Shown one piece after another: positions 12,905 to 43,442 of a stretch of 64,000 nucleotides of DNA; position 1 is the first letter of the stretch; every line of letters starts with the position of its first letter. The notes under the pieces are model-generated. The model was not told where the DNA came from, searched no databases, and saw nothing but the letters and a program-made list of their open reading frames with translations. The translations under genes and the position numbers were made by a program. Source of the stretch: an uncultured Spirochaetota bacterium (GTDB lineage Bacteria; Spirochaetota; Spirochaetia; SZUA-6; Fen-1364); NCBI GenBank assembly GCA_963734545.1, contig CAVTHO010000005.1, positions 512,001-576,000 of the forward strand, written 5' to 3'.

Positions 12905-14131
12905 ATGTCTCTGCGCGTTTTTCTCACCGCCGATCTTCACCTCGGGATGAAATTCGCGCAGTACCCCGCGGCGCACGCGGCGCTCGAGGAAGAGCGCTTT
13001 CTTTGTCTTGAGCGCATGGTCGCGGCGGCAGGCGAGAGCCGCTGCGATCTCTTTGTCATTGCGGGGGATCTCTTTCACCGAGTGTCCATGACGAAACGGG
13101 ACACGGAGAGAGCCGCCCGGGCGCTTCGTGCCTTTCCCGGGAAGTGCGTTGCGGTGCTCCCCGGCAATCACGACTACTACTCATCAGACGACGAGCTCTG
13201 GCCCCGGTTCCGCGATGCAAGCGGGGATTCTGTTCTTTTCCTCGACCAGCAGCGACCCTACCCGCTCCGTGATTACGAAATCGATGCGTGCGTGTACCCG
13301 GGGCCGTGTCTTTCCATTCACTCCGCGGCGAGCGCCGTTGGGTGGGTTCGCGGTGCCGCCCGGGAGGCCGCCTTCCGCCACCACATCGGAATTGCGCATG
13401 GAAGCCTCGAAGGGGTCTCACCGGATTTCACCGAGAGCTACTTTCCCATGAAGGTCGCGGACCTTCTCTCTTCCGGCATGGACGCGTGGCTGCTCGGACA
13501 CACGCACGTGCGCTATCCCGCGCTGCCCTCGCGTCAGGACAGGATCTACTACCCCGGCACCCCGGCGCCCGACGGATTCGATTGCACGCACGCAGGCTCC
13601 GCCTGGCTGATCGAGCTGGGCGACAACAGGGAGGTTTCCGCGCAGCCGCTCAGCACGGGCGCTATCCGATTCGAGGATCGCACCCTGGAGGTGAAGGGCG
13701 CCGAGGACCTGGCCGCGCTGGAGGAGGCCGGCGGCCCTGCAGGCGCCGCTCAATCCGCCGGATACGGGAGTACCCGTTCGGGGAATACCCCGTACGGCGG
13801 CGCCATTCAATCCGCCGGGTACGGCGGCGCCATTCAATCCGCCGGGTACGGCGGCGCGGCGGATAAAACCCTGCTCAGGCTGCGGCTGAAAGGTCGCGTC
13901 ACGAGGGAGATCCTCTCGAGTATCGGTCCTTTTCGCGCGCGCATGGCGGAGCGGCTGATGCACCTGGAGCTCCGCACGGAGGATCTCCGCGAAGCGATCA
14001 CCCGTGAGGCAATCGACAGGGAGTACCCCGTGGGATCCTTCCCCCATGCGCTGTTGTCTCAGCTCGCCGAGGAAGGCGAAGCGGAGGCTCTGCAGATTGC
14101 GCACGAGCTGCTGCAGGAGCTGCTTCCGTGA
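12905..14131 (+). CDS. sbcD: SbcD/Mre11-type DNA repair nuclease carrying an in-frame repeat insertion
   Basis: ADLHLG, AGDLF, PGNHD, AHGS, LGHTH, YPGTP metallophosphoesterase motifs; coupled to the SMC-like ATPase gene. Confidence 0.92.
   Translation: MSLRVFLTADLHLGMKFAQYPAAHAALEEERFLCLERMVAAAGESRCDLFVIAGDLFHRVSMTKRDTERAARALRAFPGKCVAVLPGNHDYYSSDDELWPRFRDASGDSVLFLDQQRPYPLRDYEIDACVYPGPCLSIHSAASAVGWVRGAAREAAFRHHIGIAHGSLEGVSPDFTESYFPMKVADLLSSGMDAWLLGHTHVRYPALPSRQDRIYYPGTPAPDGFDCTHAGSAWLIELGDNREVSAQPLSTGAIRFEDRTLEVKGAEDLAALEEAGGPAGAAQSAGYGSTRSGNTPYGGAIQSAGYGGAIQSAGYGGAADKTLLRLRLKGRVTREILSSIGPFRARMAERLMHLELRTEDLREAITREAIDREYPVGSFPHALLSQLAEEGEAEALQIAHELLQELLP
13742..13857 (+). repeat. In-frame 27-nt tandem hairpin repeat inside sbcD
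   Basis: Unit GTACGGCGGCGCCATTCAATCCGCCGG at 13792-13818 and 13819-13845 plus partial copies; junctions form CCGCCG-GGTA-CGGCGG; encodes QSAGYGGAI repeats. Confidence 0.9.
13762..13791 (+). mobile_element. 30-nt double-hairpin element, copy E1, in frame in sbcD
   Basis: ATACGGGAGTACCCGTTCGGGGAATACCCC interrupts the first repeat unit; the neighbouring units lack it. Confidence 0.75.
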
Positions 14132-16548
14132 TCGTGCGCCGCCTGCGGGTCTTTCCCTTCGGCTGTTTCGATGACAAGGAAATAGTCTTTGCTCCGGGAT
14201 TGAACGTGATCCTCGGGCCCAACGAAGCGGGCAAATCGACGCTCTTCAACGCGGTGAAGAGCTCCTTTCTGCGGACGAGACTCACAAAGCCGAAGTTCGC
14301 CCAGTTCATCGAAAGGTTTCTGCCCGCCGGCGGTGGAGACATCGTCCGCCTGGAGGTCGAGTTCACGGCGGCGGACGTCACGTGGGTTCTCAGGCGCAGA
14401 TGGGGTCACGCGCCTGCCTCGGAGTTGACGGGGCAGGGAAGAGGCACGATCGGGGACGACGACGCCATCGCAGAAAAGCTCGAAGCGCTGCTTCCGGCAA
14501 AGCAGGGGACCTTCTGGAAAGTGCTCATGACAGGGCAGAGCGAGCTCGCCGCGACCCTGGATTCGCTGCGGAAGGAGGGCAGGGAGGCGCTTGCGGATCT
14601 GACCGACATGCTGCGGCGCGCGGTGCTGGCCACTGGAGGCGTACCGGTGGACAGGTTCCTCGACCTCCTGGGGGAACGGCGCGACGAGGCCTTCTCACGC
14701 TGGGACCGGGCGCGTGCCGGTCCCGAAGGCAATCACGGCATCGAGAATCCCTGGAAGAACAGGATCGGAACGATCCTTCAGGCCTGGTACGAGACGGAGA
14801 CGGTCAAGAGGAGCGGGAAGAGCGCCGAGGCATACGAGTCCGGGCTTGATGCCGTCAACGGCCGGCTCCGGGCAACGGCTGCCGAGCTTGCGCTGCGTGA
14901 GGCCTTTGTTTCCGGGAACGAGACCGCGGCCCGGGATGCGCGGGAGCGGCGCATCCTCGACGCGGAGCTGAAGTCGGTCCGGCAGGAGATGGAGGCTCTG
15001 CGCAAGGTATCGCTGGAATGGCCCGTTGCCGCCCACAAGGCCCGGGAGCTGGAGAAGGCCCTGGCTGAGGGGGAAGCCGCGCGCGGGCCGCTCGGGGAGG
15101 AGCTCCTGGCCGCGCAAAAGGCGGAAGACACGCGGGGCCTGAGGGACAAGCTCGCGCGCGTGCTGAAGAAGGAGGCGCAGCTCGAACAGGCGCGCGGGAG
15201 GCTCGCCGCTCTGCCCCGGCTCGACAAGACCGCGCTGGAGGAAATCCGCGGAGCTTCGACGCTGCTCGAAAAGCTGCAGGCCGGCGTGGAGGCGGGCAGG
15301 CTCGCCGTGACCGTGGTCGGCAGGGCGGGTGTCGAGCTCGTCGTGCAGGAAGATTTCGATCCGGAGACCAGGAAAATGCTCGGCCCCGGCGAGACCGCCC
15401 GGCTGCAGGCCGGCGGACGTGTGCGGATCGTGCATCCCGACATGGAGATCGAAGTGAGGTCGGGGGACGTGGACTCCCTTGCCCGGGCTGAGAAAGCGGG
15501 CGCTGCCCGGCGCGCGCTGGAGGCACTGCTCGCGCGTCACGGGGTGCCCGACACCGCCGAGGCGGAAAAGCGCAGCCGTGCATATGAAGCAGGCGCCGTC
15601 GAGGTCGAATCCGCGGCGAAGAACCTTGAGGAGGAGCTTGCAGGGGAATCCCTTGCGGAGATCAAGATGCGTGTCGAGGCGCTCGGTCAGGCGGCTGTCA
15701 CCCGGCCCCTTGCGGCGATCGCCTCCGCGCTTGCCACGCTCCAGGCGCAAAGTGGAGCGCGGTCCAGCGAGCTTGCCGAGATCCGCAGGAGGATGGGGGA
15801 CTGGGCATCGGATTTCGGCACGCCGGAAGAGCTCCTCGACAGGCTCGCGGGTGCGAAAAGCCGCGAATCCGGTCTTGTCGGCCGGCTTTCCCGATCATCG
15901 CCGATGCCGGCAGGGTTTTCAGACGCCGAGTCTTTCCTGCGGGATTTCGAATCGGCGCAGAAAAGGCTTGCGGACCTCAGGGTGGAGCTGAAAGGACTCG
16001 AGGGGCAGAAGAATGCACTCGTGGACAAGGCGCCGGATCAATCGGCGGAGGAGCTTGCCGGCCAGGCGAGGGACGCGGAAGAGGCCTTTCAGATCGAGCT
16101 TCGGCGCGGCGCGGCGCTGGAGCGCATCGATGCGGTTGCCCGCAGCCTGCTCGGAGAAAACGCCTCTTCGATATACGACGGCATGCGCGCCGAGCTGGAG
16201 AAGCTGATCGCCGCCATGACCGGTGGCCGCCACCTCTGGGTCGAGATGGACGGCTCCCTGCCGCGGGCGCTTGCGGACGGCAAGGGCGCCCGCATCGGCT
16301 GGGAGCTGCTTTCCGGGGGCACCAGGGACACGCTGGCTCTTGCCCTGCGGCTGGCCATGGCGGCATATTTCCTGCAGGGTTCCGACGGCTTCATGATGAT
16401 GGACGATCCCCTGGTGGACATGGACCCCACGCGGCGAAGAGCCGCGGCCCGATGCCTTGCCTCTTTCGGTTCGGCCCGGCAGCTCATCCTCTTCACCTGT
16501 CACCCGTCAACGGCGGAGGTGTTGGGCGGAAACTTGATCCGACTGTGA
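14128..16548 (+). CDS. SMC/Rad50-like (SbcC/YhaN-type) ATPase
   Basis: Walker A GPNEAGKST, long coiled coil, LSGGT signature, MMDDPLVDMD, FTCH. Confidence 0.9.
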   Translation: MIVRRLRVFPFGCFDDKEIVFAPGLNVILGPNEAGKSTLFNAVKSSFLRTRLTKPKFAQFIERFLPAGGGDIVRLEVEFTAADVTWVLRRRWGHAPASELTGQGRGTIGDDDAIAEKLEALLPAKQGTFWKVLMTGQSELAATLDSLRKEGREALADLTDMLRRAVLATGGVPVDRFLDLLGERRDEAFSRWDRARAGPEGNHGIENPWKNRIGTILQAWYETETVKRSGKSAEAYESGLDAVNGRLRATAAELALREAFVSGNETAARDARERRILDAELKSVRQEMEALRKVSLEWPVAAHKARELEKALAEGEAARGPLGEELLAAQKAEDTRGLRDKLARVLKKEAQLEQARGRLAALPRLDKTALEEIRGASTLLEKLQAGVEAGRLAVTVVGRAGVELVVQEDFDPETRKMLGPGETARLQAGGRVRIVHPDMEIEVRSGDVDSLARAEKAGAARRALEALLARHGVPDTAEAEKRSRAYEAGAVEVESAAKNLEEELAGESLAEIKMRVEALGQAAVTRPLAAIASALATLQAQSGARSSELAEIRRRMGDWASDFGTPEELLDRLAGAKSRESGLVGRLSRSSPMPAGFSDAESFLRDFESAQKRLADLRVELKGLEGQKNALVDKAPDQSAEELAGQARDAEEAFQIELRRGAALERIDAVARSLLGENASSIYDGMRAELEKLIAAMTGGRHLWVEMDGSLPRALADGKGARIGWELLSGGTRDTLALALRLAMAAYFLQGSDGFMMMDDPLVDMDPTRRRAAARCLASFGSARQLILFTCHPSTAEVLGGNLIRL

Positions 16549-17459
16549 GCCGGCCCGAGCCGCGCCCGGTCCGACTCTCCCTGTCTTCCGCCTCCACGGC
16601 CTTCTCGGCCGCTTCCAGGTGCCGCGCAAAGTCCAATGGATCGACCCGGTTCTTCTTTCTGTTCTCATTGAGGTACCTCGAGATGCCCGGACGCGTCGTG
16701 CGCGCCCCGGTCCACCAGCGCCCGCAGCTCCTGCCGGGACGCCACGTTTCCGGGAGGAACGTCGTGCTGACGCCCATAGTACTCGCGGGCATACCACAGG
16801 ATTTTCGCCAGCCTCCGCTGGTGACCGCGCAATGAGTTGAATCCGGGGATGCGGGTGAAGTTGGCCAGCGGGTCCCACGCGCGTTCGGCAGTCTGCAGCG
16901 CGAGGTTGCGCGCCTGGAATTCCGCCATGAGCCCCTTCCGCGCGACTTCCGCCATCAGCTCGTCGGCCAGATCAAGCAGGTGCACCACGTCGGATATCGC
17001 ATAGTCGAGCATCGCGCGGGAGAGCGGACGGCGGAGCCAATTGGATTTCTGGAACTTGTCCTTGGCCGACGCCGAACCTCCCTGCCGCGTGAGAGCGTGC
17101 AGCCCTCCGGGCTTCTGGAGCAGCCTCGCCGCGATTGCCACATCGAGCAGGGGGCCCGGACGGATGTCCAAAGCGTGCTGGAACGACAGAAGATCGTTCG
17201 CCGCGTCGAACCACACCTTCAACCAGGCCGACTCTTCGAGGAGTGCCTTCAACAGCCTGGTGTTCCGGATTGACCGCGCATCCACCACCCAGCCGTGGTC
17301 CCCGTCGAAGAGCTGGATCAACGCGACGTGGATGCCATAGCTGTGGAGGTTGTTCTCCCCCTCGACGTCGACCGCGAGCCGTGGGTATCCGGCGCGCGCG
17401 AGGCGGGCAACGAGTCCCTCCAGCTCGCCGTCGGATTGTATGAAATCGTACGGGATCAT
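16493..17459 (-). pseudogene. RNase D-like 3'-5' exonuclease with HRDC region; probable frameshift near 16695
   Basis: AVDVEGE, LIQLFD, LLDVAIAARLL, KSNWLRRPLS, YAISDV; a plausible C-terminus (ISRYLNENRKKNRVDP) continues in another frame. Confidence 0.8.
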
Positions 17460-17541
17460 TCTGTGATTTCCGCCTGCTCAATCATAGCATCCCGAGACCC
17501 GCACGCACAGAGCGCTCGATTCGTCATGCACGCGCGTGCAC

Positions 17542-17572
17542 TTGACTTTCAGATTCCCCGGTCCTATACAAT
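17542..17572 (+). promoter_or_regulatory. Putative sigma70 promoter for the epimerase-GH4 operon
   Basis: TTGACT followed after 17 nt by TATACAAT. Confidence 0.5.
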
Positions 17573-17604
17573 GTCCCTACACCACATCAGCTCAGGGGGA
17601 ATCC

Positions 17605-18458
17605 ATGAAAGCGGGCTTCAATCTCTTGCTCTGGACGTCTCACGTGACCGAGCAGCATTTCCCGCTTCTGCAGAAGCTGAAGAAAGCGGGCTACGACGGA
17701 GTGGAGATCCCCATCCTGGAGGGCACGCCGTCGCACTACGCGAAGGTCCTGAAGGCCGTTCGCGACAACGGTCTGGCGTGCGCCGTGGTGACCAACATGC
17801 CCGATGCGGCGCACAATCCCGTGAGCCCCGAGAAGAAGCCAGCGGGACAATGCGCTGGATTTCATGAAGAGGGTCATCGACTGCACGCATGCGCTGGAAA
17901 CTGACCTCCTGTGCGGGCCTTTCTACCAGCCGGTGGGCCTGTTCACGGGTACCGGGCCGACGGACGAAGAGAAGCGGCGCGCCGCGGAGCACGCGCGCGC
18001 AGTCCGCCGAATATGCCGCGCCGGCCGGCATCACCCTCGCCGTGGAGTTTCTGAACAGGTTCGAGGCGTACGTTCTCACCACCATGGACGGAGTGGCGGA
18101 GCACGTGAAGAGCGTGGGCATGCCCAACTTCAAGGCCATGTTCGACACGTTCCACGCCAACATCGAGGAAAACGATCCCGTGGCGAGCATCCGCGCGCAC
18201 CGGGGCATCATCACGCACATGCACATCTCGGAGAACAACAGGGGCGTGCCGGGTCGGGGCCACAACGACTGGAAGGGCATATTCAGGACGCTTCGCTCCA
18301 CCGGCTATGACAACTGGCTGACGATCGAGGCGTTCGGCAGGGTGCTGCCCGCGTTCGCCGCGGCCACGCGGATCTGGCGGGACATCTTCGAGAGCCCCGA
18401 GGCGCTGTACACGGAGGGGATCAAATTCATCAGGCAGCAGTGGGACGCTGCTGCCTGA
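17605..18458 (+). pseudogene. D-tagatose/D-psicose 3-epimerase family (TIM barrel), two frameshifts
   Basis: GYDGVEIP, LAVEFLNRFE, FDTFHANIEE, HMHISENNRGVPGRG, LTIEAF across three frames. Confidence 0.88.
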
Positions 18459-18482
18459 CGGTGAACAGACAAGGAGCAATAC

Positions 18483-19922
18483 ATGGGTAAGAAAATCGCG
18501 ATGATCGGCGCGGGAAGCGTCGTGTTCTGCAAGACCCTGATGGCGGACATCATGGCCACCCCCGCGCTGGAAGGCAGCGAGTTCGCCTGATGAGCCGCAC
18601 GGAGCCGAAGCTGCGCGCAATGGAGGAGTTCGGGAAGCCGGATGCTCAAGGACAACGGCGTGAAAGGCAAGGTGTGGGCCACCCTGGACAGGAGGGAAGC
18701 GCTGAAGGACGCCGACTTCGTCGTCGTCATGATCCAGGTGGGCGGCGTGGAAGCCTTCGAGATCGACTGGAAGATCCCCCTGAAGTACAAGGTGGACCAG
18801 TGCGTGGGAGACACGATGGGGCCGGGCGGTGTCTTCCGGGCCATGCGGTCGCATCCCGGTGCTCCTGGAGATTGCGCGCGACATGAAGGAGGTGTCCAGG
18901 CCGGGAGCGATCATGCTGCAGTACGCCAACCCGATGGCGGGCAACTGCCTTGCCCTGGGAAAGGCGAGCGACAGTGTCCTTCGTCGGGCTCTGCCACGGC
19001 GTGCAGACCACCATCGAGCAGATTGCCCAGTTCATCGACGTGCCCAAGGACGAGATCCAGTCTACACCTGCGGCGGCATCAACCACATGGACTGGTTTCT
19101 CACCCTCACGCGAAACGGAGAGGACCTGTACCCGAAGCTGGCCAAGGCCATCGAGAAGCCCGCCATCTACAAGAGCGAGAAGGTCAGGGGCGAGGTGTTC
19201 CGGCACTTCGGCTATTTCATGACCGAAACGACCGGTCACCTGGCCGAGTACGTTCCCTGGTTCCGCAAGAGCAAGGCCGCGCTGGACATGTACTGCGACG
19301 AGCCGGGGTTCGGCGGCCAGAGCGGCGCATACTTCAACTGGTGCGACACGGTGGCGAAGAAGCTACGAGGGAAAGAACCAGCTGGACTGGGAGTCGACGA
19401 AGCTCGGAGCCGCGGAGCGTGGAGTACTGCTCGTACATCATCGAGGCGGTGGCCACCGGGAATCCCGTTCAAGTTCATGGGCAACGTGCGCAACGACGGC
19501 TACATCGACCAACCTCCCCTCGGACTGCTGCGTGGAGGTCCCCACGTTTGCGGATGAAACCGGCCTGCACCCGATGAGGATCGGGAGGCTGCCGACCCAG
19601 TGCGCCGCGCTGTGCATGACGAACGTGAACGTCCAGCTCCTGGCCGCCGAGGCCGGCGATCAACGGCGACACCGAGGCGCTCGTGCAGGCAATCGCCATG
19701 GACCCGCTGACCGCGGCGGTGTGCACGCTGAAGGAGATCCGGGACATGACCGCGGAGATGCTCGAGGCCGAGCGGCGGTGGCTGCCCCAGTTCAAGGGAA
19801 AGAAGGTGACGCCGAAGCCGGCCGTGCATATCCCCGCGAACGTGAAGGCCATCGACCTCGCGCAGGACCCGGCGCAGGCCATCCTGAAACGATTCATGGA
19901 CCTGGCGGCGGAAAAGAAATAG
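18483..19922 (+). pseudogene. melA: GH4 alpha-galactosidase (MelA-like), about nine frameshifts
   Basis: KIAMIGAGSVVF, DADFVV, GDTMGPGGVFRA, YANPM, VGLCHGVQ, GINHM, TETTGHLAEYVPWF, NVRNDGYI, CVEVP, AMDPLTAAV. Confidence 0.9.
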
Positions 19923-21951: not shown

Positions 21952-21994
21952 TGCGATCTCCTTTCCCGGCCATTGGGGGCGTGCCGATCCGGGC

Positions 21995-23104: not shown

Positions 23105-23106
23105 GG

Positions 23107-24522: not shown

Positions 24523-24529
24523 CCCCGTG

Positions 24530-27688: not shown

Positions 27689-27704
27689 TCGCGGCGTGCG
27701 CGCC

Positions 27705-31402: not shown

Positions 31403-31784
31403 ATGGAGCGAATATCGTCAGGATCACCTTTCGAGCCCGTGGTGGGATACAGCAGGGCCGTGCGGGCCGGGAGCGTCATCGAGATTGCGGGCACGGTCGC
31501 GACCGACGAAAACGGAAAGGCCGTGGCAGCGGGCGATCCCTACCAGCAGACGCGCTTCATCCTGTCCAAGATTCTCGCCTATGTGGCCAGGGCAGGCGGC
31601 AGGCCCGAGGACGTGGTGCGCACCCGGATGTTCGTCACCGACATCTCGAGGTGGAAAGAGATCGGCAGGGCTCACGGCGAGGTCTTCGGTGACAATTCGG
31701 CCTGTGACCACGATGGTCGAGGTGAAGGCGCTCATCTCGAGCGAATACCTCGTGGAGATCGAGGCGACCGCGATCATCGAGTAG
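31403..31784 (+). pseudogene. RidA/YjgF-family protein, one frameshift near 31700
   Basis: SGSPFEPVVGYSRAVR, DVVRTRMFVTD, then RPVTTMVEVKALISSEYLVEIEATA in the next frame. Confidence 0.88.
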
Positions 31785-31852
31785 CCGGGCCGCCGCGGCC
31801 GGCCGATCACGCGGCAGCCGGCCGGTCCGGCGGCGGCGCGCGGATATCCGCG

Positions 31853-34418: not shown

Positions 34419-34469
34419 TTGCTCAATATACGCACTGCCGGGAGGCCCGCACAAGCGCGAAAATAATGG

Positions 34470-34497
34470 TTGACAAAATCCAAACTTCTGATACCCT
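34470..34497 (+). promoter_or_regulatory. Sigma70 promoter of the ABC-GH149 operon
   Basis: TTGACA at 34470-34475 and extended -10 TGaTACCCT at 34489-34497, in an AT-rich patch. Confidence 0.65.
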
Positions 34498-34502
34498 GTC
34501 GG

Positions 34503-34527
34503 TTAGTTCGGGTCGGAACCGAACTAA
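34503..34527. promoter_or_regulatory. ROK/XylR-type operator
   Basis: 25-bp inverted repeat TTAGTTCGG-N7-CCGAACTAA just downstream of the -10; a ROK repressor gene lies at the end of the operon. Confidence 0.75.
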
Positions 34528-34557
34528 GTATTTTATCTAATTTTTAAGGAGGGAAGA

Positions 34558-35847: not shown

Positions 35848-35877
35848 TACACGGAGAGTGCCTCTGAGAGAATGAGA

Positions 35878-35917
35878 GAGGCAGGTGTCCCTCCTCCGCA
35901 GGGGGAGGGCCTGCCTC
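35878..35917 (+). terminator. Stem-loop after the binding-protein gene (attenuator or mRNA stabiliser)
   Basis: GAGGCAGG...CCCTCCTCC-GCA-GGGGGAGGG-CCTGCCTC. Confidence 0.6.
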
Positions 35918-35943
35918 CTGTTTCAGCGTGGAGGAGTGCCGCG

Positions 35944-36879
35944 ATGAATGCCGCTTATCACTTCGGGAGCAGACGGTCCCGGCTGATCCCCACGCTTCTC
36001 CTGCTGCCCGGGATGCTGCTCTATTTTCTCCTTTTGCTGGGCCCCTCGCTCGCCACGGTATTCTATTCGTTCACGGATGCCTCGGGGCTCATCGGGACTC
36101 CCATGAAGTGGCTGGGGCTCAGCAATTACAGGGAGTTTCTTTTCATGGGCCAGAATGTCCGTGACAACCTGGAGGTGCTGGTCCGCACGCTGGAGTTCTC
36201 TTTCCTCGTCACCGTGATCCAGACGAGCTTCGGCCTGCTGATCGCGGTGCTGCTGAACCAGCGCCTGAAGGCCACGAACGCGTTTCGCACTCTCTTCTTC
36301 CTCCCCGTGATCCTTGGCGTGACCATCATCGGCCTCATGTGGACCCTGTTCCTCTACCCGCTGGGCGGGCCGGTCGACAGGATTCTGGGGCTTTTCGGCA
36401 CGCACAACGAGCTGCTGGGGGGGCCGCCGTTCCAGGCGTTCCTGTGGGTGATCTGGGTCCAGATCTGGGCGAACATGGGCATCACGATGATCATTTTCCT
36501 GGCCGGGCTGCAGACGATTCCGGCTGAGCTTGTCGAGTCGTCTCGCATTGACGGCGCCACCGGGTGGCAGACCTTTCGGCACATCACCTATCCGCTGCTC
36601 ATGCCCAGCATGAACACGAACCTGACCCTGGCGATCATCGGATCGCTGCAGGCGTGGCAGCTCCTCCTGATCATGAAGGGCGTGACGAACGGCACCCAGG
36701 TGCTGGGCCTGACCATATATGCCATCGCCTTCGGGCGCACGACGAACAATCCGACCGCGGTCGCCATGCGCCAGGGCTATGGCGCAGCCGCCTCAGTGGT
36801 CCTGTTCATCCTCGTGCTCATCATCGGAATGACGGCGCAGTACCTCATGCGGCGCAGAGAGAGGCGGATACTCGGATGA
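35944..36879 (+). CDS. Carbohydrate ABC permease
   Basis: FLAGLQTIPAELVESSRIDGA EAA motif; several TM segments. Confidence 0.93.
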   Translation: MNAAYHFGSRRSRLIPTLLLLPGMLLYFLLLLGPSLATVFYSFTDASGLIGTPMKWLGLSNYREFLFMGQNVRDNLEVLVRTLEFSFLVTVIQTSFGLLIAVLLNQRLKATNAFRTLFFLPVILGVTIIGLMWTLFLYPLGGPVDRILGLFGTHNELLGGPPFQAFLWVIWVQIWANMGITMIIFLAGLQTIPAELVESSRIDGATGWQTFRHITYPLLMPSMNTNLTLAIIGSLQAWQLLLIMKGVTNGTQVLGLTIYAIAFGRTTNNPTAVAMRQGYGAAASVVLFILVLIIGMTAQYLMRRRERRILG

Positions 36880-37754
36880 ACGTGCCCGAGTCGAAACCCC
36901 TCGGTTCCCCCGTGCCCCCGGTCTTCCCGACAGCCCCCGTCCGTCGGCAGCCGAGGGTGCGGTGGGGAGTATATGCGGCCCTGGCGCTCGTTGCCCTCAT
37001 CTACATCGGGCCGATGCTCACCGTGGTCAACGTTTCCCTGAAGTCACGACAGGAGTTCACACTCGATCCGACTTCGCCGGCAAAGGAATTGCATTTCGAG
37101 AATTTCGCGACCGCCTGGAAAAAGGCCAACTTCCCGCTCTATCTCCGCAATACGGTCCTGTATGCCGTGGTGGCGACCGGGCTCTACGTGCTGACCGCCG
37201 TATTCGTCGCCTTTCCAATCTCACGACGGTACGTGAGGGGCAGCGGGTTTCTTTTCAGCCTTTTCGTGATCGCCTTGTTCCTGCCCTATGCGTTGATTCC
37301 CCAGTTTCAATTGATGCTCCACCTGCGCCTGTACAACACCCAGGCAGGCTACATCCTGCTCTTCCTCGTGAACCCCATCGGCATCGTCATCCTGGTGAAC
37401 TACCTCAGGTCCATACCCAGGGACCTGGACGAGGCCGCGGCCATGGATGGGAGCAGCTACGTGCGGTTCGTGCTGCGGATCATCTTCCCATTGATCAAGC
37501 CGGCGCTCGCCAGCGTTATTGTGCTGCATGCAATCGGCATCTGGAACGAATACGTCACTCCCCTGATCTACCTGACGAAAAAGGCGTACATGCCCATCAC
37601 GCGCGGCCTGATGGTATTCTACGGCCAGTACGGCAACGATTGGACCACGCTGTCCGCCGCCATCCTGATGTTGATGCTCCCCATGGTGGTCCTGTTCATG
37701 GTTCTGCAGCGCTGGATCTATGCCGGTGTTCTGCAGGGCTCCCTGCGGCAATGA
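36876..37754 (+). CDS. Carbohydrate ABC permease
   Basis: SIPRDLDEAAAMDG, IWNEY; ATGA overlap. Confidence 0.93.
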   Translation: MNVPESKPLGSPVPPVFPTAPVRRQPRVRWGVYAALALVALIYIGPMLTVVNVSLKSRQEFTLDPTSPAKELHFENFATAWKKANFPLYLRNTVLYAVVATGLYVLTAVFVAFPISRRYVRGSGFLFSLFVIALFLPYALIPQFQLMLHLRLYNTQAGYILLFLVNPIGIVILVNYLRSIPRDLDEAAAMDGSSYVRFVLRIIFPLIKPALASVIVLHAIGIWNEYVTPLIYLTKKAYMPITRGLMVFYGQYGNDWTTLSAAILMLMLPMVVLFMVLQRWIYAGVLQGSLRQ

Positions 37755-40700
37755 AAATGGCGGAGACCGCTCTCTTCATTGCCGACACCCCGCTCAAGCC
37801 CTGCCCCGGACCCGTGGCAGGGGCATGCGTCGAGCTCGATGGCGAGCCGTTCTATCGCATCGCCAACTACAGCAGGATGCCGCCTTTCCTGATGAGCCTT
37901 GTCAGCGATTCGGACCACTGGCTCTTCATCTCCAGCAATGGCGCCCTCACCGCGGGCCGCAGGGATGCCGATCATGCCCTCTTTCCTTACTATACGGATG
38001 ACCGGATCCATGACAGCCAGGATCAGACGGGCAGCGCAACGCTCCTTCGCGTCGCGCGCGAGGGCCGGACATATCTATGGGAGCCATTCTCGCAGCGCAT
38101 GGAAGGCCTGTATCGGGGCTCCCGCAGCCTGTATAAGAGCGCATACGGCAACACGATCATATTCGAAGAGGTGAACGAGGATCTCGCGCTGGTTTTCTCC
38201 TATGCCTGGATGACGAGCGAGCGGTTCGGCTTCATACGGCGCGCCGCTGTGAAGAACCAGGGCGGCGCGCCGGCGCAGATCGAGCTCCTGGACGGGATTC
38301 AGAACATCATGCCGTACGGATTGACACGCCGATTCCAGGTGGAGTTCAGCACCCTGGCGGACGGCTACCGGGAAAGCGAGCTCGAGGCGCGCACAGGCCT
38401 GGGCCTGTTCAGGCTCAGCTCGATCCCCACGGACAAGGCAGAGCCGAGCGAGGCGCTCCGGGTGACCACGGTCTGGAGCCAGGGCCTGGAGAACCCGAAG
38501 GTACTGCTTTCTCCTTCTTCCCTGGAACGGTTCCGCAAGGGAGATGCGCTCCGCGAGGAGACGAACATCCGCGGAAGACGGGGGGCGTATCTTCTCAACG
38601 CCCGGCTCGACCTGGCGCCGGGAGACCGCAAGGAATGGCTCCTCGTCTGCGGATGTCAACCAGGATGCCGCGGACGTGAGAGCGACGCTCGGGCGGCTCG
38701 AGGCGGGAAAGAATCTTGTGGCCGAGATCAAGGAGGACGTGGCGCGGGGGACGACAAACCTGGTGCGCATTGTGGCCAGCGCGGATGGTCTTCAGCTCAC
38801 CGCGGACCAGCTGAGCACGTGGCGGCATTTCTCGAACGCCCTTTTCAATGCGATGCGCGGGGGCGTGCCGGATCGGGGCTACCTGATCTCGCGCGCTGAC
38901 TTTGTCTCATTCATCCAGAACGCGAACCGCTCGGTTTCACAGCGGCAGGCGGGATTCCTGGAGTCGCTGCCGGAGACGATTTCCCACACGGCCCTCATTG
39001 CGCAGGCCCGCGGCCGCGAGGATCCCGACCTGGAGAGGCTTGCGCGCGAGTACCTGCCGCTCACGTTCAGCCGCCGGCACGGGGACCCCAGCCGACCGTG
39101 GAACACTTTCACCATTGACCTGAAAAACGAGCACGGGGAGCGGATCCTCTCCTACCAGGGCAACTGGCGGGACATCTTTCAGAACTGGGAGGCGCTGGCG
39201 CTCTCGTTCCCCGGCTATATCGAGAGCATGATCTTCAAGTTCCTCGACGCCTCGACGGCCGACGGCTACAATCCCTACCAGATCACGAGGGACGGGTTCG
39301 ACTGGGAAACCATCAAGGCGCACGATCCCTGGTCGCACATCGGGTACTGGGGAGATCACCAGGTGATCTACCTGCTGAAGCTCCTGGAGGAGTCGGATCG
39401 GTATCATCCGGGCGCCCTGCAGGACCTCCTGGCGCGTCCCGTGTTCACCTACGCGAATGTGCCCTACCGCATCAAGCCCTATGAGGCGCTCCTCAAGAAC
39501 CCGCGCCGCACGATAGACCTCGACGGCGCGCTTCAGAGCCAGATCCAGAAGCGCGTCGCGGCAATCGGCGCCGACGGGAAGCTCCTGCTGGATCGCGCCG
39601 GCGTCCCCTGCCGGGCGAGCTTGACGGAGAAACTGCTCGTCCTGGTGCTCTCCAAGCTCTCGAACTACATCCCCGAAGCCGGCATCTGGATGAATACGCA
39701 GCGGCCGGAGTGGAACGATGCCAATAACGCGCTCGTCGGCTACGGCGTATCCATGGTCACCCTTTGCTACCTGCGCCGCTTCCTGGCCTTCTCTCGGAAT
39801 CTCTTTGACCGGGTCCACGACAAGGAGCTCGAGATTTCGGCCGAGGTAGCTGCCCTGTTCCATCGGATCGCTGCTGCCCTCCGGGAGCACGCCCCCCTGC
39901 TTGACGGGCGCCCCGCCGCGCCGGGCGGGATTCGCGCTCTCTGATCAGGACCGCAAGTCCGTTCTTGACGCGCTCGGCTCCGCGGGGAGCGATTTCAGGC
40001 GCACGCTTTACGATCAGGGTCTCTCCGGCAGTCTCGTGAGCCTCACGGGAGAGGATATCGTGGCTTTCTGCGACCTGGCGCTGCGCCACATCGAGCATTC
40101 CATCCGCGCCAACCGCCGGGAGGACGGCCTGTATCATTCCTACAACCTCATGCGCGTGGCGGGGGCCGATCGCATCGTGATCCGGCGCCTGGATGAGATG
40201 CTCGAGGGGCAGGTGGCTGTCCTGAGCTCGGGCGCGCTGTCCGGCGCGGAATCGACGGCACTTCTCGACGCGCTGCGCGCGAGCAGTCTCTATCGCGCCG
40301 ACCAGAACAGCTACATTCTCTATCCTGACAGGCGGCCGCCCCGGTTTCTGGAGAAGAACAATATCCCGGCGGATGCGCTCAGGGACTCGAAGCTCCTGAC
40401 GGTGCTCCTGAAGTCCGGCGACCGGCGCATCGTGGTCCGTGATGTGCAGGGGGGCGGGCATTTCAACGCGGCATTCCGCAACGGGGAAGCCCTCCGCCAG
40501 GCGCTCACGGAGCTGAAAGCGGGTGAATATCGCGCCCTGGTGGAAAGAGAGGAGGCGCATCTCCTGGGGCTCTATGAGCAGGTCTTCGATCACCAGTCCT
40601 TCACCGGCCGGTCCGGCACGTTTTACAAGTACGAGGGGCTGGGCTGCATCTACTGGCACATGGTTTCCAAGCTTCTCCTTGCCGTGCAGGAGGTCCTCTG

Positions 40701-41241
40701 CCGGGCCGTGGAGGACGGCGAGAAAGCCGCCCTCGTCGACCGGCTGAAGAAGCACTATGGGGACATTCGGGAGGGCATCGGGGTGCACAAGCTGCCCGAG
40801 CTCTACGGCGCGATACCCACGGACCCGTACTCGCATACGCCCGGCTTTACCGGAGCGCAGCAGCCCGGGATGACCGGCCAGGTCAAGGAGGACCTCATCA
40901 CGCGCCTTGGTGAGCTGGGCGTCTATGTGCGGGAGGGGCGGCTGCGGTTCGTCCCCCGCCTGCTGACGAGCGCCGAGTTCCTGGAGGCCCCGCGCACTTT
41001 CCGATACTACGATGTGGAAGGAAGCGCATGCACGGTTCCGACAGCGGCGGACAGCCTGGCATTCACGCTCTGCCAGGTGCCGATGATCGTGCATCGAGCG
41101 GGACCGGCGCGGATCGAGCTCGTCATGGCGGATGGAGGGACGCTCACCGTGCCGGGGCTTGTCCTGGACGCCGCCACGAGCGCGGCTCTGTTCGAGCGGA
41201 CGGGCGTGGTGCGCCGACTGGACGCGTACTGTGACCTGTAG
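37751..41241 (+). pseudogene. GH149-like beta-1,3-glucan phosphorylase, two frameshifts (about 38650 and 39920)
   Basis: SDSDHWLFISSNGALTAGR, LFPYYTDD, TFSRRHGDPSRPWN, GNWRDIFQNWEAL, WMNTQRPEWNDANNALVG, YEGLGCIYWHMVSK, TDPYSHTP, QQPGMTGQVKE. Family assigned from recalled motifs. Confidence 0.8.
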
Positions 41242-41257
41242 GGGCCTCCTTTCGTGC

Positions 41258-41317
41258 GTACGGGAGTGCGCGAGTACGCGCTCGGCCCGAAGGCCGTACC
41301 CGTTCGGCGAGTACGCC
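41258..41317 (+). mobile_element. 30-nt element E2 with copy E3 (41266-41295) nested in its first loop
   Basis: GTACGGGA[GTGCGCGAGTACGCGCTCGGCCCGAAGGCC]GTACCCGTTCGGCGAGTACGCC. Confidence 0.75.
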
Positions 41318-41332
41318 GTCCAGCTCCCCGGA

Positions 41333-41362
41333 ATACGAGGGTACTCGTTCGGCGAATACGCC
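41333..41362 (+). mobile_element. 30-nt element E4
   Basis: ATACGAGGGTACTCGTTCGGCGAATACGCC; removing it restores a hairpin like that at 5260-5277. Confidence 0.75.
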
Positions 41363-41429
41363 GTACCGCGGAAGGGCTGCGGCTTGCAATCGTTCCACGG
41401 TCCGTTTGATACTTGCGGGTGAAAGCGCC

Positions 41430-42602
41430 ATGGCGAATAAGATAAATGAAATCAACACCTCACGCGTCCTGCAGAAGCTCTGGTTCAACAAAGGGATAAG
41501 CAGGGTCGACATCGCGCGTGAGCTCGGGCTTGGAAAATCAACGGTGACAAAGATCGTGGCCAAGCTTCTGGAGCGCAACCTCGTGAAGCGCGTGACCAGG
41601 GGACGCTCGGGGCCCAGCGGAGGGCGCCGGCCGACCCACCTCATGATCAACAGCCAGTATGGATACATTCTCGGCCTGGAAATACAGCCGGATTTCTACA
41701 CCGCCGTGGCCACGGATCTGCTCGGGGAGGTGATCTTTTCCCATTCGGAGCGATTGGCGTTCGGTCCAAGCATCGTCGACACCTGTCTCGGCGTGGTGAG
41801 CGCCCTGGAAGAGAGGACACGGAATATCCGGCTCCCTTTGATCGGCATTGGCGTCGGAATGCCCGGAATCATCGACCCGCACAAGGGCATCATCCTCCAG
41901 TCCAATCCGCTGAGCATCAGCCGGCCGGTGGATTTCTACCGGGAGATCGCGCCCCACCACACCGTTCCCGTCCTCATAGAAAATGACGCGAAATGCTGCT
42001 GCTGGGGAGAGCTCGCCTTCAAGAAAACCGAACGACACGCGAATTTCACGTTCGTGCTCGGCGAGTTCAGAAAGGGCAGGACGGCAAACTCGGACTATTG
42101 GGGCATCGCCATCGGCTTCGGTTTCGTCCTGAATGGAAAGGTCCACTACGGGGAAGGCTTTTCCGCCGGCGAGTTCCAGAGCATCCTGTGGGAGCCTCCC
42201 AACCAGGGCCAGTTTTCCCTGAGCGACGAAGAATCGAAGCGGATCAAGGAAGACGCGAAAATACTGGACCGGGTCCTCCGGGAGCTTTCCGCGCACATCG
42301 CGTTTCACGTCAACGCGTTGAACCTGACCAGCGTGGTGATCGGGGGCGAGATCGCCACCTACAAGGATGCTCTTACGGAGATGCTCCAGGCCGAGATCCA
42401 GAAGAACTGGTCATACGAGAACAAGGTCGACTGCTCGATCGAGTTCGCGACCCTGGGCGACAGGGCTGTCGCATACGGCGCGGCGGGGATGTTTCTCGAG
42501 CGTTTCTTCTCCATCCCCGACGTAGTGGAAAGCGCCGAGCTCCGGACGTCGAACAAGATCGGAGTCTTGTATGGACCCCGGCAATCCGCTAACGTGAGAT
42601 AA
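41430..42602 (+). CDS. ROK-family transcriptional repressor
   Basis: ISRVDIARELGLGKSTV HTH, GGRRP, GIGVGMPG, IENDA, SAGEF. Confidence 0.93.
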   Translation: MANKINEINTSRVLQKLWFNKGISRVDIARELGLGKSTVTKIVAKLLERNLVKRVTRGRSGPSGGRRPTHLMINSQYGYILGLEIQPDFYTAVATDLLGEVIFSHSERLAFGPSIVDTCLGVVSALEERTRNIRLPLIGIGVGMPGIIDPHKGIILQSNPLSISRPVDFYREIAPHHTVPVLIENDAKCCCWGELAFKKTERHANFTFVLGEFRKGRTANSDYWGIAIGFGFVLNGKVHYGEGFSAGEFQSILWEPPNQGQFSLSDEESKRIKEDAKILDRVLRELSAHIAFHVNALNLTSVVIGGEIATYKDALTEMLQAEIQKNWSYENKVDCSIEFATLGDRAVAYGAAGMFLERFFSIPDVVESAELRTSNKIGVLYGPRQSANVR

Positions 42603-42603
42603 C

Positions 42604-43242
42604 ATGGACAGGAACGGCCGTGAGTCCCCGGCCTACTACGCCACGCTCGGCGTGACAATCGCACTTTCGATCCTCGCGATCGTGACCCTGCTTCCCAGCC
42701 CCGCCGCCTCCAAGCCGAACGTCCTCGGCTACAAGTCCGTCTGCAGCTTCGCTCCGGCGGCGAGCGCGCTCTGCGGCCTGCTGGCGGGAGTGACCTGCAC
42801 CATCCGGAATCGCCGCCTGTCGAGGAATGCTTCGAGCGCCCGCTACAGGCCGCTCATTCTGCCCATCGGCCTGGGGATACTGCTCGTCATCATTGCGGTT
42901 GTGTTCGGCGCAAGATTCGGCGCTGCGCAGTCGCGGTTCGAATCGGTGATCATGAAGACGGAAATCGAGGCCGCGCCGCTCACTTCACTACCGGACGGCA
43001 CACGCAGCGCGACCTTCAGCGAAGGGGATGTATCCGCAACCGTCGAGCTCACATCGTTGAACGGCCGCATCAGCACGCTTCGCCTGAAAGCCGGGAAGAA
43101 CGTGGATGAAGAGCTCGCGGCGAGGATCTTCGACGAAGTCATGGCGGCGGGGTCCGTGGCCGTGGACGCGGTGAGCGGAGCAACCGCGTCCAGCAATGTG
43201 CTCTTGAAGGCCATCGAGGCAGCCGCGCGGCCTTCGCAATAA
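42604..43242 (+). CDS. Membrane protein with a C-terminal FMN-binding domain
   Basis: Three hydrophobic segments, SKPNVLGYKSVCSFAP, and the VDAVSGATASS flavinylation motif. Confidence 0.8.
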   Translation: MDRNGRESPAYYATLGVTIALSILAIVTLLPSPAASKPNVLGYKSVCSFAPAASALCGLLAGVTCTIRNRRLSRNASSARYRPLILPIGLGILLVIIAVVFGARFGAAQSRFESVIMKTEIEAAPLTSLPDGTRSATFSEGDVSATVELTSLNGRISTLRLKAGKNVDEELAARIFDEVMAAGSVAVDAVSGATASSNVLLKAIEAAARPSQ

Positions 43243-43250
43243 GGAACTTC

Positions 43251-43442
43251 GGGCCTCCTTTCGTCCATACGGGAGTACCCGTTCGGCGCGAACGCCGTCC
43301 ATGGACTGGGCGCCGACGGCGGACGAAGTCCGCTCGGCGACCAGAGCGGTACTCCGCACTCGTCGGCCCTCGCGGCTCTCGGCGTCTGCTCCGCAGCCGC
43401 CTGCCGCCCTCCGCACGCGTTCCGCGTGCGACGCATCCATGG
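43251..43442 (+). repeat. Composite palindromic repeat between convergent genes, containing element E5
   Basis: GGGCCTCCTTTCGTCC, then E5, then GTCCATGGAC and further hairpins (GCGGAC-GAA-GTCCGC; GCGG-AGTA-CCGC on the minus strand). Confidence 0.8.
43267..43296 (+). mobile_element. 30-nt element E5
   Basis: ATACGGGAGTACCCGTTCGGCGCGAACGCC; the joined flanks match 62513-62532 (minus strand) exactly over 20 nt. Confidence 0.78.

Follow-up and report, generated by a model that had tools for sequence, protein, structure and literature searches.

The window, the 64-kb stretch of DNA analyzed here from genome G000, includes an SbcD-like gene for a calcineurin-like metallophosphoesterase and, as the next open reading frame, a gene for an SMC/SbcC-like ATPase (Table 1). 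Within the SbcD-like gene lies an array of the repeat we call the host REP of this genome, a CCGCGG/GTAC hairpin repeat whose tandem unit of 24-27 nt begins with GTAC and is then followed by GTAC again. The first unit of the array is interrupted by E1, one of five 30-nt units (E1 to E5) listed in the first-pass annotation, all of which read exactly as written there. The element's main host is this REP, which has one hairpin with different stems; the double hairpin of 30 nt interrupts it as a separate element. Each copy of the element has the same layout: a T, a hairpin with a 5-bp stem and a 4-nt loop, another T, and a second hairpin of the same dimensions, giving two unlike 14-nt hairpins. 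When folded as single-stranded DNA, each of the five units forms these two hairpins, with free energies between -10.7 and -11.7 kcal/mol and z-scores, relative to shuffled sequences, between -3.1 and -4.6. E3 is nested in E2, where it occupies the loop of the first hairpin immediately upstream of GTAC. The 61-nt E2-E3 region adopts a branched fold (-23.9 kcal/mol), while the host REP together with E1 forms a three-way junction (-18.7 kcal/mol). The earlier statement that GT(A/C)C follows every copy in the window is correct, with GTAC adjoining E1, E3, and E4 and GTCC adjoining E2 and E5.

Table 1. Features of the 30-nt element and its surroundings. Positions refer to the window unless a contig or genome is named; R1 is the covariance model of the element.
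Feature	Position	Strand	Description
SbcD-like gene	12905..14131	+	Calcineurin-like metallophosphoesterase; Pfam Metallophos, residues 3-202
SMC/SbcC-like ATPase gene	14128-16548		Next ORF; Pfam SMC_N and AAA_23
Host REP array	13742..13858	+	Three 27-nt units (GGCGCC-N-AATCCGCCGG GTA CGGCGG)
E1	13762..13791	+	30-nt double-hairpin copy, stems ACGGG/CGGGG; R1 50.2 bits
E2, 5′ part (GTACGGGA)	41258..41265	+	Hairpin 1 to first loop base; split off by E3
E3	41266..41295	+	Subtype B, stems GCGCG/CGGCC, second loop CGAA; R1 50.5 bits
E2, 3′ part	41296..41317	+	Remainder of hairpin 1, T, hairpin 2 (CGGCG AGTA CGCC); then GTCC
E4	41333..41362	+	Stems ACGAG/CGGCG; R1 46 bits
E5	43267..43296	+	Subtype C, second loop CGAA; R1 54.6 bits
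E5-target paralogue (TTTCGTCC joined to GTCCATGG)	62516..62531	-	"Empty" site, host repeat family 2
Precise orthologous empty site	C3:390404 of G000		Versus G014
Precise orthologous empty sites	C8:511927 and C6:162833 of G000		Versus G002
Precise orthologous empty site	G014 copy, rpsJ-rplC spacer		Versus G002
Precise orthologous empty site	60-nt nested pair in dnaE		Versus G002

With model R1 run without filters, the four intact copies in the window score 46-54.6 bits, the next match is hairpin 2 of the split E2 (41302-41318, 20.8 bits), and the remaining matches reach at most 13.2 bits. The same model identifies 62 copies in this genome (E ≤ 1e-3). A strict genome-wide scan for the hairpin-T-hairpin arrangement returned 56 matches, 50 from the family and 6 unrelated, so the chance level is about 6. 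Stem pairing was also evaluated by a structure-blind test in which invariant bases alone were fixed, with no selection for pairing. Both free pairs of hairpin 1 are Watson-Crick in 47 of 50 matches, with five pair combinations, and all four free pairs of hairpin 2 form in 52 of 79 matches, the other 27 being chance matches or decayed copies. Together with the single-stranded folds, these results bear out the compensatory changes in two 5-bp stems that had been proposed. No solo hairpin modules of the element were found.

The 30-nt unit is an insertion element rather than a chance hairpin, as first suggested, a conclusion supported by exact filled and empty sites among paralogues and sister species, by nested and tandem copies, and by the 62 copies in the genome. 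Removal of exactly 30 nt restores a 22-mer present elsewhere for 15 of 59 copies, whereas removal of 24, 27, 28, 29, 31, 32, 33, or 36 nt does so for none of the 59. The more specific claim that removal of each copy in the window restores a sequence found intact elsewhere in it holds only in part. Removing E1 recreates the sequence of the other two array units, which represent uninterrupted "empty" sister sites (as a 20-mer, the restored site has two occurrences in the window and 15 genome-wide). Removing E5 recreates its single uninterrupted paralogue, in which 20 nt are identical to the joined E5 flanks (no chance match in 100 shuffles). Removal of E3 leaves an ordinary hairpin 1, but the sequences restored by removing E2 and E4 were not found elsewhere in the window.

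Orthologous sites, whose comparison had been recommended, are equally precise: sister species at 82-91% DNA identity carry empty sites of 30 nt or 60 nt. All of E2-E4 are absent from the orthologous spacers of G014 and G002. The left junction carries a one-base uncertainty: if the first R is part of the target, the element proper would be T-hairpin-T-hairpin. The assignment is mixed, with this base being the target's in two orthologous cases and the element's in dnaE and at the E5 paralogue.

E1 lies both in the loop of the first REP unit and in frame in the SbcD-like gene, where the array and E1 separate the nuclease domain from the C-terminal region. In the alignment, the 40-amino acid insert that holds E1 is absent from ortholog L042 and from six more distant orthologs, whereas ortholog L043 carries three copies at this site in the opposite orientation, arranged in tandem and nested. 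Across the genome, 6 of the 62 copies lie within genes, among them the dnaE, SbcD-like nuclease, and Lhr-like helicase genes, and orthologs of these and the other genes lack them. It had been proposed that the element is coding-compatible and that its copies contain no stop codon in any of six frames. This is true of 58 of the 62 copies, but 33% of random 30-mers from this genome are likewise free of stops, and so stop-freedom is weak evidence; with few copies in genes, coding compatibility as a designed property is also weakly supported.

Insertion occurs immediately 5′ of GTAC and, in fewer cases, of GTCC, with no target duplication and in a fixed orientation. GTAC follows 42 and GTCC 11 of the 62 copies in G000, and 63 copies from other metagenome-assembled genomes (MAGs) obey the same rule (27 followed by GTAC, 24 by GTCC). 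Removal of 26 of the 62 copies restores an NGTA-loop hairpin whose stem has at least 5 bp; just 336 of 13,370 GTAC sites have this character. The covarying stems and the location of targets mostly in apical loops of other hairpins support the earlier view that the structure of the element matters. The E4 site is a decayed REP-like site (CCCCGGA and GTACCGCGG flanking the insertion point), and E5 immediately precedes GTCC within a host repeat of a second kind (CTTTCGTCC and GTCCATGGACT). Copies at C3:395810 (after a stop codon), in dnaE, and at C10:216835 occupy sites without REP homology. Orientation relative to GC skew, which is itself very weak, is unbiased (34 of 62).

All 14 copies in the genome that start with GTGC (subtype B-like) were examined, and 13 reside within hairpin 1 of another copy or its decayed remnant. 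The exception is the hybrid at C10:216835, which has a first hairpin of type B and a second of type A and lies elsewhere. The hosts of subtype B span at least five subtypes, which indicates repeated insertion. No subtype B copy was found in the loops of hairpin 2, which bear GTAC equally.

The scan of relatives proposed in the first-pass annotation revealed 1-86 copies in 18 of the 24 other genomes of the same family. The carriers are uncultured spirochaetes from soil and peat, through whose genomes the element has copied itself dozens of times, and no genuine copy was found outside this Spirochaetia clade. All compared genomes are MAGs with 60-99% completeness, and therefore plasmids and phages may be missing from them.

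The window contains no transposase, as had been noted, and the Y1 and IS110 matches of this genome are on contigs C4 and C8. Mobilization by HUH enzymes of the Y1/RAYT type had been suggested but is not supported. The sole Y1 gene of the genome belongs to an IS200 with unrelated end hairpins, and no RAYT gene is present. Furthermore, the number of copies is not matched by the presence of Y1 genes across the genus: G002, with 77 copies, lacks a Y1 gene, and G017 combines one weak match with five Y1 genes. Among the family MAGs, none of Y1_Tnp, Y2_Tnp, IS110 DEDD, and RVT_1 co-occurs with copy number: G012 (32 copies, 97% complete) and G003 (19 copies) match none of these four classes, and G002 (96% complete) has one IS110 match alone. 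The genes between neighboring copies or host hairpin sites are ordinary. In addition, the hairpin feet abut the cut sites, leaving no space for IS608-type guide tetranucleotides.

We consider it probable that these 30-nt units are lineage-restricted, non-autonomous insertion elements mobilized by a structure-specific enzyme supplied in trans and belonging to none of the four classes above. We infer that such a DNA enzyme would bind the hairpins folded in DNA that is single-stranded or extruded and would cleave next to G-N-A-Y, both at the end of the element and in the target. Precise excision and re-joining could then proceed as in IS200/IS605 "peel and paste" or REP/RAYT systems. The preferred target is GTAC or GTCC in the apical loop of a small hairpin, provided by the REP-like repeat, by the second palindromic repeat family, or by the first hairpin of a copy already in place. 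Since the loops of the element itself read A-GTAC, every insertion makes new targets, which accounts for the nested and tandem copies.

Another possibility, which we judge unlikely, is that there is no dedicated transposase and that host DNA repair or recombination spreads the copies. Hairpin loops would be cleaved, perhaps by a hairpin nuclease of the SbcCD type, and microhomology-templated synthesis or short-patch conversion would then use another repeat locus as template through shared GTAC and stem bases. The insertion of copies into hairpin loops, the GTAC common to element, REP hosts, and targets, the near-identical REP arms of 10-13 nt in many flanks, and the lack of co-occurrence with any of the four enzyme classes are consistent with this route, and heteroduplex repair would fit the mixed one-base junction assignment. 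However, repair of this kind is difficult to reconcile with a unit that is always the full 30 nt, with the sites lacking REP homology, with the fixed orientation relative to the GTAC cut side, and with the restriction of subtype B to hairpin 1 loops.

The strongly conserved pairing and the placement of copies mostly in short spacers between operon genes might instead reflect an immobile structure, such as a protein-binding or RNA-stabilizing module of REP arrays, whose presence or absence results from deletions; the cited accounts credit REPs with such roles (PMC3733652, PMC8266576). We find this improbable given that only 1 of 18 G000 copies examined is common to a sister species at the identities compared, that one site in two relatives holds different copies in different orientations, that some copies are nested in others, and that those inside genes are absent from orthologs. 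The element could secondarily have gained a function. An RNA intermediate with reverse transcription, as proposed for mitochondrial double-hairpin elements and suggested for those of Allomyces by their lack of flanking duplications (PMC2800124), is very improbable here: RVT_1 is unmatched in seven of nine genomes with at least 19 copies, including G000 and G002, although 18 of 25 copies between co-directional genes lie along transcription and 7 do not, in a crude tally of non-independent copies. The chance of an assembly or sequencing artefact at palindromes is negligible. Short-read contigs from four public runs do break at copies, but such breaks are expected at multi-copy repeats, and summed depth is 18-633 in copy-holding bins versus 0-28 in most other bins. 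Moreover, 19 of the 25 family genomes (this one included) contain these 30-nt units, which obey the same target rule, as do MAG records with several different isolate series named in their titles.

The first-pass annotation had also regarded the unit as shorter than known elements. PATEs are longer than 100 bp, and Rickettsia palindromic elements, at ~100-150 bp, are much longer than the 30-nt element. The size argument is nevertheless weak, as REPs of 20-40 bp are known, some of them inside small palindromes in Thermomicrobium roseum (PMC3733652), and REPs with stems of just 5 bp have been described (PMC8266576).

Compared with these systems as the cited sources present them, the element behaves like a miniature REP or IS200/IS605-type element, but the mechanism proposed in the first-pass annotation is only partly supported. 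Like the 30-nt element, REP/BIME sequences are short GC-rich hairpin repeats with tens to hundreds of copies, mostly intergenic (PMC3733652, PMC8266576). Both are sometimes in frame in genes, notably those for DNA replication and repair, and both have a conserved tetranucleotide beside the stem and subfamilies with compensatory stem changes. The tag of the element is RTAC/GTGC and its target GTAC/GTCC, whereas the described RAYT-linked REP superfamilies carry GTAG or CGTC. Unlike the REP/BIME repeats in these accounts, the element consists of two unlike hairpins arranged head-to-tail 1 nt apart, and exhibits filled and empty sites that differ by exactly one unit, as well as nesting of copies within one another. 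Unlike REP/RAYT systems, its genome is without a RAYT gene.

The substrates of IS200/IS605 and RAYT enzymes are single-stranded hairpins beside tetranucleotide motifs (PMC8266576, PMC10055086). IS200/IS605 elements and PATEs, their gene-less derivatives, resemble the 30-nt element in having a hairpin at each end and precise excision-like empty sites, and in inserting with strand and orientation specificity next to a fixed tetranucleotide, with no target duplication (PMC10055086, PMC8266576). Moreover, the target motif, which on the opposite strand reads GTAC/GGAC, is similar to the GTAC/GTAT/GCAC at the far end of the element, as in a TAM/TEM-like pair. In contrast to IS200/IS605 as described there, the element is two hairpins alone with no spacer for guide sequences, and neither the hairpins of the only IS200 in this genome nor the distribution of Y1 genes matches it. 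Rickettsia palindromic elements share with it the in-frame placement of palindromic repeats in protein genes, adding loop segments in the account available (PMC3733652), but differ in that so few copies of the 30-nt element are in genes.

The double-hairpin elements of Allomyces mitochondria and the GC clusters of yeast mitochondria are, like the 30-nt element, very short mobile two-hairpin repeats (PMC2800124, PMC4478555). In these sources, their occupancy differs among close relatives, units are merged and shuffled, and no enzyme is known, as is also the case here. These elements belong to eukaryotic organelle genomes and are unrelated in sequence. The yeast clusters have putative target duplications (PMC4478555), whereas the Allomyces elements (Paquin et al. 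2000, as cited in PMC2800124 and PMC4478555) share with the 30-nt element the lack of flanking duplication.

All five 30-nt units that the first-pass annotation claimed for the window exist exactly as it described them, in coordinates and in sequence. As single-stranded DNA, each is predicted to fold into two hairpins with 5-bp stems and 4-nt loops (-10.7 to -11.7 kcal/mol; z-scores against shuffled sequences of -3.1 to -4.6). E2 and the copy nested in it, E3, fold together as a branched structure, and E1 forms a three-way junction with its host repeat.

Positions of 30-nt copies, neighboring repeats and other loci in the window and on contigs (C) of the genome under study, G000
Feature	Sequence	Positions	Strand	Remark
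E1	window	13762-13791		
Host REP tandem units	window	13792-13858		
GGGCCTCCTTTCGT motif	window	41242-41257		just upstream of E2
E2	window	41258-41265 + 41296-41317		split by E3
E3	window	41266-41295		inside E2
E4	window	41333-41362		
Segment of ~1.37 kb	window	42591-43963		
GGGCCTCCTTTCGT motif	window	43251-43266		just upstream of E5
E5	window	43267-43296		
Repeat of ~90 nt	window	43359-43449		adjoins E5
Uninterrupted paralogue of E5 site	window	62516-62531	minus	
Copy with 30-nt empty site in G014	C3	390404		
IS200	C4	158130-161489		L001
Host REP tandem unit	C4	711806		
Decayed copy also in G014	C4	753578		
Copy with 30-nt empty site in G002	C6	162833		
dnaE	C7	42777-46118		L222; carries nested pair
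Copy with 30-nt empty site in G002	C8	511927		
rpsJ-rplC spacer	C9	~86.9-87.4 kb		L088

The genome (5.14 Mb, 63% G+C, 10 contigs), in which the window is C5:512001-576000, is closest among public genomes to MAGs labeled uncultured Spirochaetota or Spirochaetia. It holds 56 perfect hairpin-T-hairpin sites, of which 50 share the consensus RT-ACGGG-AGTA-CCCGT-T-CGGCG-AGTA-CGCC, then G, and six are unrelated. This strict scan and a covariance model (R1) built on 44 of its copies replaced a loose hairpin scan that gave 2,334 matches; the reversed-genome control of the loose scan was uninformative, since reversal turns every hairpin into another hairpin and the count came out identical. The covariance search and genome-wide count proposed in the annotation yielded a family of at least 62 copies at E≤1e-3, when 150 of ~6,500 first-look candidates were scored. 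With filters off, R1 scored the four intact copies in the window at 46-54.6 bits, followed by hairpin 2 of the split E2 (20.8 bits), with all other matches at or below 13.2 bits. No Rfam family matched the window at its gathering score.

Since the alignment was chosen for pairing, its 100% pairing is circular, and we therefore used a structure-blind test in which only invariant bases were fixed and the covarying positions were left free. For hairpin 1, both free pairs were Watson–Crick in 47 of 50 matches, in five combinations. For hairpin 2, all four free pairs formed in 52 of 79 matches, with the stems GGCG, GGGG, GGCC, CGCG, and GACG; the remaining 27 are chance matches or decayed copies. 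Neither hairpin was found alone as a member of the family, which identifies the 30-nt double hairpin as the unit.

Among all 25 genomes of the family to which this bacterium belongs, R1 finds the most copies in the two sister genomes, G014 (86) and G002 (77), followed by G000 (62), G006 (33), G012 (32), G020 (30), G013 (24), G008 (21), and G003 (19). Ten further genomes carry 1-8 copies apiece and six carry none. A simpler pattern returned nothing from 16 genomes in seven other families of the order. When an 18-mer was scanned against ~185,000 species, one genome each, all real copies among the matches listed belonged to this Spirochaetia clade, and the 13 listed matches from elsewhere lack the second hairpin and are due to chance.

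Evidence that the unit inserts as a whole comes from sites with and without it. Removal of exactly 30 nt restores an 11+11-nt sequence present elsewhere in G000 for 15 of 59 copies, and removal of 24, 27, 28, 29, 31, 32, 33, or 36 nt restores none of the 59. In the window, E1 adjoins two uninterrupted sister repeats, and E5 has an uninterrupted paralogue. Comparison of 18 G000 copies with the sister genomes (82-91% DNA identity in syntenic pieces, 79-92% in other syntenic pieces) uncovered one shared copy, found in the same decayed form in G014. The filled and empty orthologous sites that the annotation had suggested seeking were found: three copies face exact 30-nt empty sites, one in G014 and two in G002, and the nested pair in dnaE faces an exact 60-nt empty site in G002. 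The reverse direction is seen in the rpsJ-rplC spacer, where G014 has a copy and the G002 site is empty. This spacer holds three tandem 27-nt units of the host REP (a separate, single-hairpin repeat) and no element in G000, one REP unit in G002, and one REP unit containing the 30-nt element in G014. The gene tuf is also flanked by repeats. In the remaining cases the sequence missing from the sister is longer, 37 to ~105 nt, and comprises the copy and repeat material beside it, and for four further G000 copies no bracketing match was found in the sisters.

The E1 site shows similar turnover. It carries no insert in one ortholog of the SbcD-like host gene (L042) or in six more distant orthologs. 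In another ortholog (L043, positions 2286-2500) it holds one REP unit and three tandem and nested copies that point the other way; at 120 nt (40 residues) in total, this insert is as long as the one in the window but differs from it in content. Tandem copies spaced by exactly 30 nt occur in G020, G003, and G006. Among public sequencing runs, no RNA run was listed as containing the stretch. Contigs from four public DNA runs were short and ended or ran on unlike at the copies, and none bridged a copy with unique flanks.

The copies occupy a restricted set of sites. In G000 the element is followed by GTAC in 42 of 62 copies and by GTCC in 11, and its own 5′ end reads GTAC (25), ATAC (16), GTGC (14), or GTAG (1) among the 59 copies of standard length. 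In at least 30 copies the left tetranucleotide (ATAC or GTGC) is unlike the right flank (GTAC or GTCC), and this frequent mismatch indicates that no target duplication is made. Specifically, duplication of TAC or GTAC is ruled out by subtype B (stems GCGCG/CGGCC), which starts GTGC, and by subtype C (second loop CGAA), which is followed by GTCC. Sixty-three copies from other MAGs of the clade obey the same target rule, with GTAC after 27 and GTCC after 24. Second loops of AGTA or GGTA are also found at GTCC in these MAGs, which rules out a strict link between subtype and target.

Most sites are the apical loops of other hairpins. G000 has no shortage of GTAC (13,370 sites, observed/expected 0.92), and strand-specific NGTA loops closed by at least 5 bp occupy only 336 positions; restored sites are such loops in 26 of the 62 copies, and ~9 more are the host REP in its other orientation. 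One host is a REP-like repeat, AATCCGCGG-AGTA-CCGCGG-CGCC, occupied in both orientations, and another is a palindromic repeat family (...CCCTCGCC/GTCCATGG..., with a slash at the site). Subtype B is hosted by the hairpin 1 loop of another copy, at ACGGGA/GTACCCGT, and its hosts belong to at least five subtypes. To look for the lagging-strand template bias of IS200/IS605-derived miniature elements, we compared element orientation with local GC skew: the signs agree in 34 of 62 copies, but a skew of only ~0.01 is too weak for a conclusion either way. The host REP repeats in tandem units of 24 or 27 nt, each of which also starts with GTAC and has GTAC after it. Since this is the boundary rule of the 30-nt element, the process that spreads the element may also lengthen REP arrays. 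Among the 4-nt palindromes of G000, CTAG is strongly avoided (813 observed, 3,874 expected, ratio 0.21), and the others have ratios of 0.81-1.35.

Shifting the excised window along the sequence assigns the third base of the left end to the element, given that copies starting with GTGC restore nothing at shifts of three or more. The same result eliminates insertion 3′ of a left RTAC by an element ending in GTAC. Two orthologous empty sites read ATAC, and in their filled counterparts the left tetranucleotide is ATAC or ATGC and the right one is GTAC. As read from sequence, these two sites would fit a cut between R and TAC by an element of the form T-hairpin-T-hairpin. The sequence is GTAC at the dnaE empty site and GTCC in the E5 paralogue, which would fit a cut 5′ of R. 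It is uncertain whether the first base belongs to the element or to the target, and single substitutions may account for these junction readings given the 9-21% divergence between the genomes.

A codon-usage test places six of the 62 copies inside genes and 56 outside. Six ORFs were tested, and Pfam domains flanking or spanning the insert support four of them as genes; these encode a DUF4147/MOFRL protein, a radical SAM/SPASM protein, an Lhr-like helicase, and DNA polymerase III alpha, where the 60 nt lie within the HHH_6 domain. The other two, a histidine kinase and a MerR/UDPGP reading frame, are ambiguous. In dnaE, the nested pair adds 20 residues near residue 867, in the helix-hairpin-helix domain, and G015, G006, and G012 lack 72 nt there. 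Essential genes tolerate such inserts, as this replicative polymerase gene demonstrates. E1 lies behind the nuclease domain of a calcineurin-like phosphoesterase gene, which adjoins an SMC-type ATPase gene as an SbcCD-like pair. REPs in DNA replication and repair genes are described in the available parts of Di Nocera et al. (PMC3733652), and the 30-nt element has three confirmed hosts of this kind. The annotation had also remarked on the lack of stop codons in all six frames; this holds for 58 of the 62 copies but is weak evidence of design, given that 33% of random 30-mers are likewise stop-free.

Two end hairpins, a fixed orientation, no duplication, precise empty sites, and a tetranucleotide beside the cut resembling that at the far end of the element make up the signature of IS200/IS605 and REP/RAYT systems as presented in the available parts of PMC8266576 and PMC10055086. 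REPs are short (20-40 bp), GC-rich, palindromic, numerous, and mainly extragenic, and the 30-nt element with its 62 copies is alike. However, one end of a REP palindrome is marked by a conserved tetranucleotide, GTAG or CGTC, which the element lacks save for the single GTAG start. A REPtron pairs its REPs with a cognate Y1 (RAYT) gene that they flank and that is usually present once, and no such gene was found with the element. A REPIN joins two inverted REPs into one long hairpin, whereas the two hairpins of the element are unlike, follow one another head to tail with 1 nt between them, and fold independently. PATEs of the IS200/IS605 type share with the element subterminal hairpins at both ends, insertion 3′ of a fixed tetra- or pentanucleotide, no duplication, and one orientation; on the complementary strand, the element is preceded by GTAC or GGAC, and its last four bases are GTAC, GTAT, or GCAC. 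PATE ends match those of a full-length tnpA insertion sequence in the same genome or a related one, but the element's ends are unlike those of the G000 IS200, and there is no co-occurrence across 21 genomes. A DDE-type MITE would have terminal inverted repeats and a target-site duplication, and the element has neither. The element appears to work like a miniature REP or IS200/IS605-type unit, while failing the tests of GTAG tag and cognate Y1 gene.

The only PF01797 (Y1) gene in G000 belongs to an IS200 (tnpA of 160 aa; ends CCACCGCC-TATG/TCTG-GCGGTGG) whose end hairpins are unrelated to the element; it sits in an apparently AT-rich, low-G+C island, and an apparent methyltransferase-like ORF adjoins it. 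No PF01797 match was found in G002, G006, G012, G020, or G003, which carry 19-77 copies. Descent from IS91 would call for a Y2 HUH transposase, and PF04986 is absent from six element-carrying genomes (G000, G002, G012, G020, G013, and G003). A relation to IS110/IS1111 would call for a co-occurring DEDD transposase, but PF01548 does not co-occur with the element: neither G012 nor G003 has a match to it, and matches exist in three genomes without copies (G001, G011, and G019) and in G017, where the element gives a single weak match. A retro-element would need a reverse transcriptase, and PF00078 is absent from seven of the nine genomes with at least 19 copies. Among these nine, Y1 occurs in four, Y2 in three, IS110 in seven, and reverse transcriptase in two, and none of the four tracks copy number across 21 genomes of the genus. 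G012 (97% complete) and G003 lack all four enzyme classes; the copy-free G011 and G019 have all four, and copy-free G001 matches all four, with Y1 as only a fragment. The search for a RAYT/TnpA(Y1) gene flanked by the element's hairpins, proposed in the annotation, turned up no such gene: neighboring copies or host hairpin sites enclose only ordinary genes (pabB/pabC-like, regulators, ABC transporter, tuf, rpsJ, rplC, flagellar, YraN-like). These absences are not proof, since the genomes are incomplete MAGs, and a plasmid- or phage-borne enzyme missing from them could be responsible.

Exact sites without the usual enzymes imply either an unrecognized mobilizing activity or that host repair alone multiplies a defined hairpin unit. 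We infer the mechanism of movement, and consider it a possible, if rather unlikely, reading that the mover is an enzyme of a kind not yet tied to transposition (a non-Y1/Y2 HUH, non-DEDD, non-reverse transcriptase protein). Such an enzyme would read small DNA hairpins, cut beside GTAC in hairpin loops, and paste the T-hairpin-T-hairpin unit. If an enzyme of this new kind exists, the element would rank as the smallest defined unit of mobile DNA in bacteria; it would target itself, build branched structures, and offer a natural setting for solving the long-open question of how REP-like repeats spread.

The 30-nt family is real, and as an example of a mobile hairpin repeat it is unusually clean; small palindromic repeats are a kind of element already known. 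Close parallels in the available parts of the literature are the Thermomicrobium roseum REPs inserted in small palindromes (PMC3733652) and REPs with 5-bp stems (PMC8266576); the Allomyces mitochondrial double-hairpin elements, with no flanking duplications and no known enzyme (cited in PMC2800124 and PMC4478555), are a further parallel. No description of this family was found in article texts, and no report of clean insertion junctions was found in the available parts of the REP/RAYT literature, where the spread of such repeats is called poorly understood (PMC8266576). The family offers exact filled and empty sites, a clear GTAC/GTCC-in-loop rule, nested copies, and rapid turnover between sisters, in genomes where RAYT/IS200 enzymes and the other usual suspects were not found.

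Other repeats and rearrangements surround E2 and E5. The motif GGGCCTCCTTTCGT, which we take to resemble the 3′ end of 16S rRNA, follows the stop codons of two unrelated genes, and G014 keeps GAGCCTCCTT at the first of these sites. The ~90-nt repeat matches many loci (~70-95% identity) across most of the genus, also in genomes where the 30-nt element is absent or nearly so, and is a separate, more widespread repeat family. The ~1.37-kb segment comprises an FMN_bind-domain gene, E5, and the 90-nt repeat. At the orthologous place G014 has 23 nt instead of this segment, and in G013, G018, G019, G005, and G017 the coding pieces from its two sides are next to each other and the repeats are absent.
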